64,000 nucleotides of DNA from NCBI GenBank assembly GCA_964630055.1, contig CAZVRA010000002.1:79021-143020 (forward strand), given 5' to 3'. The stretch is from an uncultured Candidatus Saccharibacteria bacterium (lineage in GTDB: Bacteria; Patescibacteriota; Saccharimonadia; Saccharimonadales; CAZVRA01). The translations under genes were made by a program, and so were the position numbers. This document shows positions 29,177 to 31,940 of the stretch, piece after piece; position 1 is the stretch's first letter; the number at the start of each line of letters is the position of its first letter. Below the pieces are notes generated by a model. That model did not search any database and had not been told where the DNA came from. It was given only the letters and a program-made list of their open reading frames with translations.

Positions 29177-30115
29177 TTAGAGTGCCGACCATTGCCCAGG
29201 AGTTAAGCTTCTTATGTGGCCAGACAACTCTAGCATGGTTAAGGCTTGCTGCACTTGGCGCAGAGGTAACGCTGATTTTTCTAACAATTCGTTTGTATAT
29301 ATTATGCCAGAGCGAATTTGTTGGAGTAGTTTAGCCTGGACTTGGTCTTTGGGTAGCGGCAGTTCTTGAGCTGGCACGGCGTTTGGAACGATAATATCTA
29401 GAATATCTTGCAAGCTGGTGACGGGTATTGCTCCCTGCCTTATTAGCTTGTTGGTTCCTTGGCTAGTGGGACTGTTAATATTGCCAGGCACAGCAAAAAC
29501 ATCTATGCCAAGCTCCAGTGCAAACTCGGCTGTGTGCAAACTACCACTACGCTGAGCTGCTTCTGTAATGATTACTGCCTGGGCAAGGCCAGCTATAATA
29601 CGGTTTCTAGCCACAAATTGCCAGCGGCCTGGGTTAGCTGACTCCCCTGGTCCGTACTCGCTTACTAGACTGCCCTTTTGCGACAGTATTTGATGAGCCA
29701 ATGGTTGGTGGCTAGATGGATAAACATGCTCAATGCCACATGGCAATACGGCTATGGTATGACCACCGGCTGCAATAGCCGCCTGGTGCGCCAGCGAGTC
29801 GGCACCGATGGCTAGGCCACTAACAATAGTAACGCCTTTTAATGCTAGCCCACTCGCAATATAATTAGTTACCCATCGACCATAGCTACTAACTGCTCGA
29901 CTGCCTACAATAGCAACTGTTGGGCCGCCTAGCAGACGGAGTGGATCTAGACCCATATACCACAGTTGTTTAACCGCTGGTTGGACCAGGTTTAATTGCC
30001 CCAAACTTGCCGGGTTTATAGGGTGGTACTGACTTTTTGCTGGTGATTTATTGATACTCATCATGCTTATGTGCCATGCAAGTAATGCCATGACATTGTA
30101 TTGATTATTTAACAA
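29177..30115 (-). CDS. dprA: DNA processing protein DprA
   Basis: Rossmann-like core GSRAVSSYG...SGLAIGADSLAHQAA...NRIIAGL...SGSLHTAEFALELG. Start uncertain: TTG 30115 or an ATG at 30091, 30064 or 30061. Confidence 0.85.
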   Translation of the reverse strand: MLNNQYNVMALLAWHISMMSINKSPAKSQYHPINPASLGQLNLVQPAVKQLWYMGLDPLRLLGGPTVAIVGSRAVSSYGRWVTNYIASGLALKGVTIVSGLAIGADSLAHQAAIAAGGHTIAVLPCGIEHVYPSSHQPLAHQILSQKGSLVSEYGPGESANPGRWQFVARNRIIAGLAQAVIITEAAQRSGSLHTAEFALELGIDVFAVPGNINSPTSQGTNKLIRQGAIPVTSLQDILDIIVPNAVPAQELPLPKDQVQAKLLQQIRSGIIYTNELLEKSALPLRQVQQALTMLELSGHIRSLTPGQWSAL

Positions 30116-30130
30116 AATTTATTTTTAGTA

Positions 30131-30159
30131 TTGACATAAAGGCATTTATTTGCTAAAAT
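30131..30159 (+). promoter_or_regulatory. near-consensus sigma70-type promoter (TTGACA-17 nt-TAAAAT)
   Basis: TTGACA at 30131-30136, an exact 17-nt spacer, TAAAAT at 30154-30159. Confidence 0.6.
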
Positions 30160-30232
30160 CGCAAACTGTGATTCTGTATAAGCATTGCTTGCAGATACCA
30201 CGTACCTTCTACCCCAAATTCTAACCGGCAGT

Positions 30233-30252
30233 TGTTAAATAATTGTTAAATT
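30233..30252 (-). promoter_or_regulatory. direct-repeat box site 2 (identical 20-mer to site 1)
   Basis: Exact 20/20 match to 24047-24066 in the same orientation. TAGAAT lies 9 nt downstream on the minus strand, pointing at dprA. Extra TGCTAA/TGTTAG hexamers flank it. Confidence 0.5.
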
Positions 30253-30593
30253 ATCGTAATAATTGCTAAGTGTTAGATTGTTTTAGAGCGCGCGAGCCAA
30301 AGTTGTTACCCTCCACTTTTTTTCGCTGCCTCCGGTTAGCCGGATTGGGCAGCGCTCTAAGACAAACTAACCCCTTTAACCTGATGTCTGTTCCAGATTG
30401 CGTTTTCGCATTTTGGACCGACCCCAATCAGTGTGAGTACGTCAGTATGACCTCGTTTATCCTCGGATAAACCAGGCGGCGCGAGTCTTTATGGAGTTTT
30501 GGACATCGACGCTTCACCGGGTGGGTTGAAGGGTGGTTTATAGAGGTAATCCCGGCGGTGGGCCAACGAACCGGGGTATTTGCCTCTTGAAAT

Positions 30594-30633
30594 GAGCCTC
30601 TAGCGGTGCCCACCCCCTCTAGAGGCTCTTTTT
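30594..30633 (+). terminator. rho-independent terminator
   Basis: GAGCCTCTAG / CTAGAGGCTC 10-bp stem, 15-nt loop, TTTTT run. The loop GCCCACC is complementary to GGTGGGC at 30557-30563. Confidence 0.7.
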
Positions 30634-30655
30634 GTTGATTTTATGCGACAGTTTT

Positions 30656-31303
30656 ATGACAGATAATTTACCCGACAACCTACTATCTCCAAAAGTGTAT
30701 TTCGATAATGGTTTTGACAGTCTTTGCCATCAGGCGATTGAGCAATCAGTCGAGCACGGTGCGGCTAAAATTAATGGTTTCTTAGGAAAAACTTCTTTGG
30801 AGCGTTTACAAGAAAGGTGTCCATCTGACGCAGAACTTTTGGCCGCCAAGATACCGGAAATTGCTCAATTTATAACCTATTTATGCCACGACGCCAAAAA
30901 CACCTGGAGTGTTTCGGCCGAAATTGCTTATGTACAAAATACTAGTGCCTATAATCAGACAATTGTGTCTCATCTTGATCCGCCTGCTTATGGCAAGGAC
31001 GGACTTAGCCTGGTATTGCCTTTAACTGGGGCCAAAGCGCTGTTTGGAGCCGATGATGAGCGTTTTGGGGATTTAAACGGAGTGTGTACCAAGCGGCAAT
31101 CATCTTATGTTACCGAATACGGGCCTGGCGACGCTATACTCCTGCGGCAAAACGTCGCCTCGGTCAACGCCCAGCCAAAGTTAAAGCTCCAATCTTGGCA
31201 TTACGGTTTTGTAGTAGCTAAACCAGGTATGATGCCAACAGAATGGAACAGAAAAATACTATTAATTGACCTAGCTAATCCTGACGTTAGATATGCCGGC
31301 TAG
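30656..31303 (+). CDS. hypothetical protein, possible Fe(II)/2-oxoglutarate-oxygenase-like fold
   Basis: HxD (SHLDP) ... GPGDAILL ... H (SWHYG) spacing resembles the DSBH facial triad. Start moved to ATG 30656 because the track TTG 30632 lies inside the terminator T-run. Confidence 0.35.
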   Translation: MTDNLPDNLLSPKVYFDNGFDSLCHQAIEQSVEHGAAKINGFLGKTSLERLQERCPSDAELLAAKIPEIAQFITYLCHDAKNTWSVSAEIAYVQNTSAYNQTIVSHLDPPAYGKDGLSLVLPLTGAKALFGADDERFGDLNGVCTKRQSSYVTEYGPGDAILLRQNVASVNAQPKLKLQSWHYGFVVAKPGMMPTEWNRKILLIDLANPDVRYAG

Positions 31304-31940
31304 TCGTGGCCAGGCCCTGTCCAGAAACAACAGCTTCGATCAACAAGGAGACAACCTCTTTTTTTATATCGGCTAAATTATTTTGTTCTGTGGTGTTAAA
31401 TTTGGCTAGTACAAAATCGGCGCTGTCTATTTGTGGAGGATTTTTGGGGCCGATTCCGATCCGAATACGTCCAAAATCTGGCCCACAGTGTGAAATTATG
31501 GATTTTAGACCATTGTGCCCGGCACTGCCGCCACCAATTTGGCTGCGTAGCATGCCAAACGCTACGTCTAGCTCGTCGTGGACAATTATGGTAGCGCTGG
31601 AGGGTATTTTAAAGAAATGTTGCGTGGCGCCGACAGCTAGGCCACTGTCGTTCATGAAAGTGGTCGGTTTTATGGCTATAACTCGAGTGTTACCTATGGT
31701 GCCGCTGGCTAGTAGGCAGTTTAGATCTTTTTTGGTTATCCAGGGCTCGGCCTGGCCTTGGCTAAACTCGCTGTGGCTGGCTACAAGGCTGCTTAGACAG
31801 TCAAAGCCAATGTTGTGGCGTGTGCCGTCGTATTGGCGACCAGGATTGCCTAAACCGACCAGCAGCATGGTTTTTTGAACGCCAATTGTGTAAAGTGGCG
31901 CCTGGCTGGCGGGAACCGGTCGTTTTGCAAATAATCCCAT
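31287..31940 (-). CDS. pth: peptidyl-tRNA hydrolase
   Basis: LLVGLGNPGRQYDGTRHNIGF and GGSAGHNGLKS motifs. Confidence 0.9.
   Translation of the reverse strand: MGLFAKRPVPASQAPLYTIGVQKTMLLVGLGNPGRQYDGTRHNIGFDCLSSLVASHSEFSQGQAEPWITKKDLNCLLASGTIGNTRVIAIKPTTFMNDSGLAVGATQHFFKIPSSATIIVHDELDVAFGMLRSQIGGGSAGHNGLKSIISHCGPDFGRIRIGIGPKNPPQIDSADFVLAKFNTTEQNNLADIKKEVVSLLIEAVVSGQGLATTSRHI

Follow-up and report, generated by a model that had tools for sequence, protein, structure and literature searches.

Comparative analysis of a 64,000-nt stretch of DNA (the window) shows a predicted free-standing noncoding RNA gene of about 468 nt at positions 30164–30633 of the forward strand, with a strong promoter and an intrinsic terminator of its own. 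The DprA relatives belong to Saccharimonadales/Patescibacteria, and the window is thus assigned to Saccharibacteria (CPR). According to the alignments of homologous loci, the gene belongs to a family of large structured RNAs that had not been described before, and this family is shown to be conserved in Saccharibacteria at one fixed locus, in single copy. We consider it probable that this is a new family of trans-acting structured RNA, in which exposed loops are putative recognition sites. The features of the gene and its neighbours are listed in Table 1.

Table 1. Features of the RNA gene and neighbouring genes (positions in the window)
Feature	Positions	Strand	Remarks
dprA	29177–30091	−	Divergent from the RNA; Pfam PF02481 and PF17782; P0001 100% identical
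Sigma-70-type promoter	30131–30159	+	−35 TTGACA 30131–36; extended −10 TG 30151–52; −10 TAAAAT 30154–59
P1, 5' hairpin	30167–30202	+	30167–72 pairs with 30197–202; sequence variable; 5/6 pairs change on both sides
Conserved pyrimidine-rich block ACCUUCUACCCCAAAUUCUAAC	30204–30225	+	Unpaired in the consensus fold
Lineage-specific hairpin insertion	30226–30271	+	Apex of the UUCUAAC/GUUAGA helix; from alignments
P2 domain	30272–30371	+	GUUAGAUUGUUUUAGAGCG (30272–90) with CGCUCUAAGACAAACUAAC (30353–71); encloses two hairpins
Hairpin P2a	30300–30318	+	Stem AAGU/ACUU; 11-nt loop UGUUACCCUCC (30304–14) containing CCUCC
Hairpin P2b, CGCUGCC...GGCAGCG	30324–30354	+	Position conserved, sequence and length vary; present in the MFE fold
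P3 domain	30372–30533	+	CCCUUUAAC (30372–80) with GUUGAAGGG (30525–33); closes variable multi-branch region 30381–30518
G-rich strand GGGUGGG	30519–30525	+	GGGGUGGG in most relatives; exactly complementary to CCCACCC(C) of the terminal loop
P4 variable hairpin	30542–30587	+	Absent in ~40% of relatives; 9/9 pairs change on both sides; 40 sequences gapped
Terminal hairpin and intrinsic terminator	30594–30633	+	10-bp covarying stem, 15-nt loop, T-run 30629–33
215-aa ORF, function not assigned	30656–31303	+	ATG 22 nt past the T-run; not a conserved partner of the RNA
pth (peptidyl-tRNA hydrolase)	31287–31940	−	Convergent with the RNA; conserved downstream neighbour in relatives

In the promoter scoring, the promoter reaches 11/12 with the TG and a 17-nt spacer, and it is the top site within 3 kb. 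The predicted transcription start is located at about 30164–30167. The pattern TTGACA-N16-18-TAnnnT with TG is found in 106 of the 109 homologues, and the promoter is invariant in the alignments A1 and A2. It is placed back-to-back with the start region of dprA. The terminator arms GAGCCTCTAG (30594–30603) and CTAGAGGCTC (30619–30628) enclose the loop 30604–30618 and are followed by TTTTT at 30629–30633. The terminator is absent from the scan output because the scan permits loops of up to 8 nt only, and the T-run is found in 92/109 homologues. A preliminary description of this DNA had reported the near-consensus promoter, the GC-rich 10-bp stem with TTTTT, and the short distance from the T-run to the ATG at 30656, and all three agree with the present coordinates and scores.

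The same RNA was detected in all six lineages anchored independently by DprA (6/6), with nhmmer E values of 1e-25 to 1e-38 at a DprA identity of only 47–56%. A contig search with DprA peptides gave distant Firmicutes and Spirochaete DprA genes only, and zero relatives. The RNA is also present in at least 120 metagenome loci, one copy each. These loci were retrieved by a pattern taken from the RNA itself, so that part of the invariance of TTGTTTTAGAG and GTTACCCTCC comes from the search. The order of the locus is constant: dprA (or topA-dprA) is divergent, the RNA follows, and pth-der is convergent. The end of pth is located 7–70 nt past the RNA in at least 15 loci. Family members are 280–635 nt long (median 384 nt), and the version in a short clade measures about 290 nt. 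Across the homologues, the longest stretch free of stop codons has a median of 64 aa, and the differences in hairpin length are not multiples of three.

The + strand 30165–30640 folds with −177 kcal/mol against −134 ± 5.6 kcal/mol for shuffled sequences (z −7.6), and the − strand gives z −5.4 in the same test. In 97 aligned sequences, 51 of the 88 pairs change on both sides, and none of 500 shuffles was as high. As the alignment of the variable hairpins is imperfect, the following values are read with this limit: 91.5% of the cells are paired, and the pairs score 0.245 for covariation, where shuffles give 0.122 and slid partners do not exceed 0.066. The G-U wobble variants fit the + strand only. 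The structured promoter-to-terminator RNA claimed in the preliminary description is thus conserved and covarying in this comparison with shuffles, and its predicted fold is more stable than theirs.

The fold consists of a 5' hairpin, a pyrimidine-rich single strand, P2 with the CCUCC-loop hairpin, P3 with a multi-branch domain, and the 3' terminator hairpin. Nearly invariant parts are the promoter, several blocks of 10–19 nt and two C-rich hairpin loops. For the pyrimidine-rich block, no consistent partner was found in the column covariation screen, and local pairing of its UUCUAAC with GUUAGA (30272–77) is possible. The adjacent insertion is missing in many relatives, and others have a different hairpin there. 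P2 is an A/U-rich helix of 17–19 bp with nearly invariant sequence and one A.A mismatch. It is 99.7% paired, and its changes are G-U wobbles and compensatory changes at the two innermost pairs. The helix TTAGAGCGC/GCGCTCTAA, found by hand earlier, is part of the conserved P2. Of the other helices described there, the hairpin CGCTGCC/GGCAGCG keeps its position in every homologue but not its sequence, and TTTATC-ctcg-GATAAA is a hairpin but a lineage-variable one. In P2a, the stem shows an A-U to C-G change in eight sequences, and the loop is invariant in 109 sequences, partly fixed by the search pattern. P3 is accompanied by the compensatory variants GCCUUUAAC/GUUGAAGGC, CCCUUUAAG/CUUAAAGGG and CCCUUCAAC/GUUGAAGGG, and this covariation proves the long-range helix.

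In the terminal stem, 10/12 pairs change on both sides, whereas the 15-nt loop CGGUGCCCACCCCCU (30604–18) is invariant, and its motif is present in 108/109 homologues. The consensus fold leaves both UGUUACCCUCC and CGGUGCCCACCCCCU unpaired. The helix between the G-rich strand and the terminal loop is 88.9% paired with zero covariation, and this pairing is therefore unproven. The loop never varies, so the test for a pseudoknot between the loop and GGGUGGG is uninformative. The loop is unchanged in L087 and L042, whose G-rich strand is altered to GGUGAG, and in L033 and L066, where another sequence takes the place of this strand. An all-against-all column covariation screen for pseudoknots, which was noisy, gave no pairing beyond the nested helices.

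No known family accounts for the RNA. The Rfam 15 search (4227 families) of the window and of 1 kb gave no match for the RNA at the gathering score or at E<=10, tRNAs were all that was matched there and in four relatives, and ARAGORN found no tmRNA in the window. The earlier failure to match known RNAs thus stands, and the cmscan check against Rfam proposed with it gave no family match. The RNase P P4 strands (GGAAAGUCC / ACAGAA..GGCUUA) are absent from the sequence, and in the consensus fold the 5' end does not pair with the 3' end. By direct reading there is neither a GGUUCGA-type T-arm nor a CCA end, and no family of the Rfam tmRNA clan matched. The RNA is unlike 6S and Ms1 RNA in its fold, where several domains with separate 5' and 3' hairpins stand in place of one long irregular helix closed by the two ends around a large central bubble, and Rfam gave no match to them. 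We rejected SRP RNA and T-box (no Rfam match; the SRP domain IV motif is absent by reading), and membership in OLE, GOLLD, ROOL or raiA (no covariance-model match). Omega RNA/HEARO, retron and CRISPR were rejected on the single copy per contig and the invariant housekeeping neighbours, a tRNA with a group I intron on the lack of acceptor, D or T arms, a permuted tmRNA on the lack of a T-arm, and a DNA uptake sequence on one copy per 64 kb. For a CRISPR/tracr-like element, GUUUUAGAG is a coincidence, with no array and no cas gene. No description of the RNA or of the hairpin was found in the literature.

A close likeness is with OLE, GOLLD, ROOL and raiA motif RNA. These are likewise several hundred nt long, with a covariation-supported fold and invariant stretches, their own promoter and terminator, and a distribution restricted to a lineage yet widespread there, and their function is not deducible from sequence. 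The present RNA differs from them in having no sequence or structure match in Rfam 15, in its CPR Saccharibacteria host, and in a terminal loop module common to phages. Its locus is of a fixed housekeeping type, whereas GOLLD and ROOL are phage- or tRNA-linked and OLE is oap-linked.

The terminal-loop 17-mer GCGGUGCCCACCCCCUC recurs in 53 viral contigs at 50 distinct viral sites. Each viral copy of the loop sits on its own, different complementary stem: an unrelated complementary stem of at least 6 bp directly flanks the 17-mer at 44/50 viral sites, compared with 1/239 controls. The settings are phage leaders (capsid-module), the ends of tiny RNAs, and the linker of a permuted tRNA-like unit. 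The loop-bearing contigs with portal and terminase genes are genuine phages. In the Rfam search of 15 viral loci (gathering score, E<=10), tRNAs only were matched, and no G-rich partner in cis was found near the phage hairpins. Phage small RNAs with the same terminal hairpin often contain CCUCC, and the phage genes adjoining the hairpin have strong AAGGAG sites. One viral contig (L193) carries the RNA itself. Partial or full duplicates of the loop and 3' arm are located just downstream of the RNA in L014, L065 and L138, and a 115-nt accessory element is bordered by the two loop halves. The terminal hairpin resembles the lambda boxB/N and the MS2/PP7 operator hairpins in behaving as a module with a constant loop on a stem that is free to vary, and it is used in phage leaders and small RNAs. 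The loop here is different from boxB, MS2 and PP7, being 15–17 nt long and C-rich with no similarity to them, and it is common to a host RNA and many phages.

We favour a trans-acting RNA, which would most probably form the core of a ribonucleoprotein or serve as a docking RNA. The invariant 5' block, the loops UGUUACCCUCC and CGGUGCCCACCCCCU, and the strand GGGGUGGG are candidate contacts for a conserved protein or RNA partner. Because phages put the same loop on their own stems, the terminal hairpin may be taken as a portable recognition tag, which would be read by a host factor. The large RNA would then carry a single such tag, together with the sole conserved stretch that is complementary to the tag. 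A more specific proposal, to which we give a low probability, is that the RNA is a guide, scaffold or catalyst subunit of a Saccharibacteria machine that recognises GGUGCCCACCCCC-loop-tagged transcripts. Tag recognition by such a machine might use the RNA's own GGGGUGGG strand. The positions of the tag, at the 3' end of the RNA itself, in phage leaders, on tiny RNAs and in the tRNA-like linker, would resemble an RNA-processing or sorting signal. If this is true, phages plug their transcripts into a host RNA-processing hub, or compete for it.

The same loops can be read in another way, as in a base-pairing regulator of the RNAIII or RsaE-RoxS type, whose C-rich loops pair with G-rich ribosome-binding sites and repress translation. 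Staphylococcus aureus RNAIII and RsaE/RoxS are also multi-hairpin, trans-acting RNAs with unpaired C-rich loops, of which one belongs to the terminator hairpin, and this likeness is an analogy only. The invariant unpaired C-rich CCUCC loop and CCCACCCCCUC in the terminator loop fit this reading, and so do the CCUCC of the phage small RNAs and the AAGGAG of the neighbouring phage genes. However, there is no homology with RNAIII or RsaE/RoxS, the loops here are 11–15 nt long and invariant over a class-level lineage, and the use of Shine-Dalgarno sequences appears weak in this genome, since they are rare before the window ORFs (GGAG 2/49, AGGA 7/49). Many window ORFs start directly behind −10-like boxes. 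No complementary target above chance was found in the 64-kb window, and the invariant blocks of 11–19 nt and the 17-bp helix exceed what seed pairing needs. We regard the regulator as rather unlikely, though it survives best among the alternatives to an RNA serving as a core or docking platform.

Another reading, which we judge improbable, is that the loop is conserved as DNA, as the core of a site-specific recombination (att) site of the kind used by elements that insert at the 3' ends of tRNA and tmRNA genes. The duplicates of the loop and 3' arm downstream of the RNA, the accessory element between the loop halves, and the same 17-mer in phage contigs, together with the RNA in one of them, are consistent with an att site. 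Genes for tRNA, tmRNA and RNase P RNA are similar in having a single copy, a strong promoter, conserved synteny and nearby partial duplications of the 3' end, but their defining sequence and structure elements are absent here. In the phages, the 17-mer is always located between its own complementary arms, unlike the host arms. As the arms differ, recombination inside the loop would destroy both hairpins. Moreover, many phage copies are terminators of tiny RNAs or lie in mRNA leaders, and an att site leaves the rest of the 400-nt RNA without explanation.

A housekeeping RNA (RNase P, tmRNA, SRP or 6S/Ms1-type), too divergent or permuted for the Rfam models, is very improbable. A length of about 300–470 nt, a strong constitutive promoter, a single copy and a fixed locus are typical of such RNAs, and departures from the usual form, such as introns, are frequent among CPR RNAs (PMC13011429). 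The same study, on tRNA introns, used the standard tmRNA model RF00023 to search genomes of Patescibacteria (PMC13011429). Against a housekeeping RNA are the lack of any match among the 4227 families at E<=10 on 1 kb and in four relatives, the ARAGORN result without a tmRNA, and the direct reading, in which the P4 strands, the T-arm and CCA, the SRP domain IV motif and the pairing of the 5' and 3' ends are all absent.

The preliminary description had seen in this region the architecture of a riboswitch or attenuator, that is, a cis-acting leader whose response to a ligand or factor would set the amount of read-through past the terminator, into the ORF at 30656. The T-run is only 22 nt from the ATG with no promoter-like site between them, and alternative pairings are available (UUCUAAC or ACUAAC with GUUAG, and GGGUGGG with the loop). 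However, the synteny largely refutes the leader: a homologue of the downstream gene is found in the same position at only 3 of about 118 other loci (L081, L062 and L135), and in at least 15 loci the convergent pth follows instead at the short distance given above. No aptamer class was matched in Rfam. The antiterminator proposed earlier, GGTGGGC at 30557–63, does complement the loop, but it is a lineage-specific insertion, found in the window within the variable P4, and relatives do not conserve it. What is conserved as a complement of the loop is GGGTGGG at 30519–25, and GGGGUGGG complements the loop of the terminator and not its stem, with no covariation. A cis-acting leader is highly improbable. 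The 215-aa product gave zero matches in Pfam, NCBIfam and PADLOC, and an exact look-up found no record. Read-through into this ORF may occur in the present genome, where a secondary cis effect is then possible, but it is incidental to the conservation of the RNA. Finally, a protein-coding gene or a chance structure in a plain intergenic spacer has a negligible probability, as the window ORFs of 53–66 aa inside the region are not conserved, the indels are not multiples of three, and the blocks are conserved with covarying stems and a fold z of −7.6.

To our knowledge, new classes of large structured RNA are rare. New biology followed from each of RNase P, tmRNA, OLE, raiA and ROOL/GOLLD. The genomes of Saccharibacteria and other CPR bacteria are tiny, and that of the cultivated TM7x is about 94% coding. 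According to a 2022 preprint on the TM7x transcriptome, no small RNAs had been validated (10.1101/2022.03.25.485537). The role of the trans-acting RNA proposed here is likely to be central to Saccharibacteria, because all the sampled members keep it, its promoter is of the consensus type, and its blocks are more conserved than the flanking proteins. The loop hairpin common to phages is an immediate experimental handle for pull-downs and competition assays, and the loop-tagged hairpin links host RNA biology with phage infection in a little-known group.

The predicted structured RNA of about 468 nt between dprA and a 215-aa ORF (here called the big RNA) is preceded by a promoter that scores 11/12 and is the top site in 3 kb according to the promoter scan. 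The terminator was identified by direct reading; the terminator scan allows loops of up to 8 nt, and for that sole reason a terminator with a 15-nt loop was skipped. The folding energy of the interval is -177 kcal/mol versus -134 +/- 5.6 in dinucleotide shuffles (z -7.6), and that of the opposite strand stands out less (z -5.4). With the strong promoter, the 10-bp stem followed by TTTTT and this fold, the promoter-to-terminator structured element placed at 30131-30655 in the preliminary description was correctly recognized. The cmscan search proposed there was run against Rfam 15, and no family matched the big RNA at gathering score or at E<=10, indicating no known family. ARAGORN detected only four tRNAs in the window, all outside the big RNA. 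Searches of Pfam, NCBIfam and PADLOC with the 215-aa ORF found nothing.

According to the DprA homologues, the window belongs to Saccharibacteria/Saccharimonadales (Patescibacteria, CPR), and DprA of the closest relatives is only 47-57% identical to that of the window. The DNA around six such proteins from different assemblies was taken as an anchored set, which is free of RNA-pattern bias. The gene order der-pth-[gap]-dprA-topA is present in 6/6 loci, and nhmmer with the window's intergenic query gave a full-length match in each of the six (E 1e-25 to 1e-38), on the strand opposite to dprA. At the nucleotide level this intergenic segment is thus more conserved than the coding gene beside it, and this is evidence of a functional RNA. 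In the anchored alignments the promoter is invariant, and the invariant blocks, including 18 nt of TGTTAGATTGTTTTAGAG, GTTACCCTCC, CTCTAA, GGGTTGAAGGGT and 19 nt of AGCGGTGCCCACCCCCTCT, are separated by length-variable hairpins.

A pattern made of two blocks of the big RNA was used to scan JGI metagenome contigs. At least 120 contigs matched, with one match each, and the rest of the big RNA was present in 120/120 contigs among the matches listed; the invariance of the two pattern blocks is partly imposed in this set by the retrieval. After duplicate removal, 109 distinct full-length sequences were obtained among the matches listed. In these 109 listed sequences, the length from the predicted start to the T-run is 280-635 nt (median 384), TTGACA-N16-18-TAnnnT with the TG extension is kept in 106, the terminal-loop motif in 108 and a T-run of at least 4 T in 92. 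No reading frame is conserved in the 109 sequences (over all frames, the longest stretch free of stop codons has a median of 64 aa), and the hairpins of homologues differ in length by amounts not divisible by three. In public assemblies, hypothetical ORFs are called that start inside or directly after the big RNA (L017:2116-2667 and L025:2161-2478, both minus strand), and the L017 call overlaps its 3' end. The unannotated RNA gene is the probable cause of these calls, which would be over-extended or spurious.

The neighbouring proteins of the window were compared with all loci by tblastn. On its upstream side the big RNA is always flanked by divergent dprA, with topA taking its place where dprA is absent, and the downstream neighbour is convergent pth, followed by der. 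In at least 15 loci, 7-70 nt separate the pth stop from the 3' end of the big RNA (7 nt in L093, 14 in L140, 15 in L085 and L099, and 16 in L114, among others), so that read-through could control nothing there. Homologues of the 215-aa ORF lie behind the big RNA at just three other loci (L081, L062 and L135). The 22-nt gap between the T-run and the next ATG, which had pointed to a leader, riboswitch or attenuator, is real but peculiar to the source genome, and the leader reading is unsupported. The proposed antiterminator or pseudoknot strand GGTGGGC (30557-63) falls within the window-specific part of the P4 hairpin and is not conserved. The synteny indicates a free-standing gene for the big RNA.

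Coordinates of the big RNA, its flanking genes and related elements (positions without an L-number are those of the window; L-numbers are loci or contigs of relatives, L149-L201 being viral)
Feature	Position	Strand	Remark
dprA	29177-30091	minus	one flank of the big RNA; Pfam PF02481 and PF17782
Promoter	TTGACA 30131-36; TG 30151-52; TAAAAT 30154-59	plus	17-nt spacer including the extended -10 TG
Big RNA	30164-30633	plus	predicted
P1 hairpin	30167-72 with 30197-202	plus	RNAalifold
Pyrimidine-rich single strand	30204-25	plus	ACCUUCUACCCCAAAUUCUAAC; conserved; RNAalifold
P2	30272-90 with 30353-71	plus	17-19-bp A/U-rich helix, sequence nearly invariant, one A.A mismatch
P2a hairpin within P2	30300-18	plus	invariant 11-nt loop UGUUACCCUCC
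P2b hairpin within P2	30324-54	plus	variable
P3	CCCUUUAAC 30372-80 with GUUGAAGGG 30525-33	plus	closes variable multi-branch region
P4	30542-87	plus	optional hairpin
Terminal hairpin (terminator stem)	30594-603/30619-28	plus	last element of consensus fold; 10 bp, 15-nt loop
Terminator T-run	30629-33	plus	TTTTT
215-aa ORF	30656-31303	plus	other flank of the big RNA; function unassigned
Accessory element	L014:2457-2582; L017:2436-2550; L021:1792-1906, 1920-2049; L023:2268-2380, 2388-2500; L027:2460-2561; L029:3080-3193; L052:6164-6276; L125:6852-6963	same as RNA	
Viral 17-mer sites (examples)	L154:2868-2884; L195:8010-8026; L170:9508-9524		

The consensus fold was obtained by RNAalifold from our own alignment and from the alignment A3 of 97 big-RNA sequences, and the architecture is the same in both. 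In A3, 91.5% of the cells are paired in the named structure, and the MAFFT alignment of the variable hairpins understates pairing there. Both sides change in 51/88 pairs (716 cells). The covariation score is 0.245, compared with 0.122 +/- 0.003 in shuffles (0/500 reach 0.245) and at most 0.066 with partners slid by 1-3 columns. Three independent compensatory variants of P3 were found, namely GCCUUUAAC/GUUGAAGGC in the eight sequences of the short clade, CCCUUUAAG/CUUAAAGGG in about nine sequences and CCCUUCAAC/GUUGAAGGG in two; P3 is thus proven. The changes from U-A to U-G and from G-C to G-U are consistent with the plus strand only.

UUCUAAC (30219-25) is able to pair locally with GUUAGA (30272-77) in competition with the base of P2, and the apex of this local helix is the exact site of variable hairpin insertions, including 30226-71 of the window. 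The near-identical conserved hexamers UCUAAC (5', in 30219-30225) and ACUAAC (3', 30366-30371) share this GUUAGA partner. Their rivalry could be a conformational switch within the big RNA, or a three-strand arrangement. In one clade (L058, L145, L046, L037, L051, L067, L070, L073 and L137), the apex carries an insertion of about 70 nt between UUCUAAC and GUUAGA with its own conserved core ..AAUCUGAUUUAAUCAUUUUUUAAUC.., which is a clade-specific extra domain. The G-strand GGGGUGGG (30519-25) perfectly complements CCCACCCC of the terminal loop, and the loop is unchanged also in loci with a mutated or absent G-strand (L087, L042, L033 and L066). As the loop never varies, covariation neither supports nor excludes this pairing.

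Since the loop and 3' arm recur in part downstream in several relatives, IMG/VR was searched for the invariant 17-mer GCGGTGCCCACCCCCTC. The 17-mer was detected in 53 viral contigs (L149-L201), only one of which (L193) carries the big RNA itself. At 44/50 distinct viral sites, at least 6 uninterrupted bp directly flank the 17-mer, with a stem unrelated to the host stem; the corresponding value for control flanks is 1/239. The terminal-loop sequence GCGGUGCCCACCCCCUC (30604-30618) is thus an independent hairpin module on differing complementary stems. Three phage contexts were observed. In L154 and eight similar contigs, the leader GTTGAT-hairpin-second hairpin-AAAGGAG lies just 3' of the portal gene and a small 81-aa ORF. 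In L151, L163, L183, L194, L195 (which encodes a large terminase), L200, L201 and others, the hairpin and a T-run terminate very short RNAs with predicted starts right behind TAGAAT/GATATAAT boxes. In L170 and L171, the hairpin is in the linker of a permuted tRNA-like unit, between its 3' half and its 5' half. In L170:9440-9600 (minus strand) and the L171 equivalent, a TATAAT box is followed by the T-arm and the 3' strand of the acceptor, a linker that holds the conserved-loop hairpin, the 5' strand of the acceptor with the D-arm, and a T-run. This looks like a tRNA-like gene that has been circularly permuted; ARAGORN and Rfam gave no tRNA call on it. Rfam has no model for the terminal-loop hairpin, and no G-rich partner in cis was found near the phage hairpins. 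A fixed loop on free stems is the signature to be expected of a hairpin that a trans-acting factor recognizes.

An att site as the explanation of the conserved loop fits the duplications near the big RNA; it does not fit the phage stems, which are self-complementary and unrelated to that of the host. In some genomes there are additional copies, full or partial, of the terminal hairpin or loop within a few hundred nucleotides 3' of the RNA (L138:898-909, L065:5184-5195 and L014:2442-2453), reminiscent of the duplicated 3' ends at tRNA/tmRNA integration sites. Directly after the terminator, about 10 relatives carry one or two tandem copies of an accessory element of about 115 nt, which is not in the window. 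With its ends (5' GGYGCCCA, 3' ..UCUCACCCUCUnnAGGCUC-UUUUU), it looks like the loop and 3' arm of the big RNA set about 100 nt apart, and may be either a second small RNA or a scar left by duplication or integration.

These comparisons show the big RNA to be a single-copy RNA under structural constraint, with exposed elements that are invariant and putatively with a transcription unit of its own. It probably acts in trans, as a docking RNA or as the RNA at the core of an RNP. Its contacts would be made through the invariant loops, the 5' block and the G-strand, and the terminal hairpin would have a double role as terminator and as a recognition tag copied by phages. Our confidence in any specific mechanism is low. 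Pairing of C-rich loops with ribosome-binding sites, as in RNAIII or RsaE, is unlikely: an invariant loop does carry CCUCC, but Shine-Dalgarno motifs are rare 5' of the 49 window ORFs of at least 150 aa (GGAG 2/49, AGGA 7/49; starts crudely assigned to the first ATG), and no complementary site above chance was found in the 64 kb. Many predicted start codons of the window lie 5-12 nt behind -10-like boxes (TATACT, TAGAAT, TATAAT and TAAAAT), and this arrangement suggests that leaderless or very-short-leader mRNAs may be frequent in the source Saccharibacterium.

As a riboswitch/attenuator, RNase P RNA, tmRNA, 6S/Ms1, SRP RNA, T-box, OLE/GOLLD/ROOL/raiA or mobile-element guide RNA, the big RNA fails every testable defining feature. 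The resemblance to the orphan large ncRNAs is one of kind only: size, an ornate covarying fold and stretches of invariant sequence. Full-text literature searches gave no description of it, and according to a TM7x transcriptome preprint (10.1101/2022.03.25.485537), small RNAs of TM7x had yet to be validated. Our confidence is good to high that the locus encodes a functional RNA that stands alone and belongs to a new family. The most fitting description of the locus is that of a founding member of a new large structured RNA family of Saccharibacteria, with a hairpin tag shared with phages.
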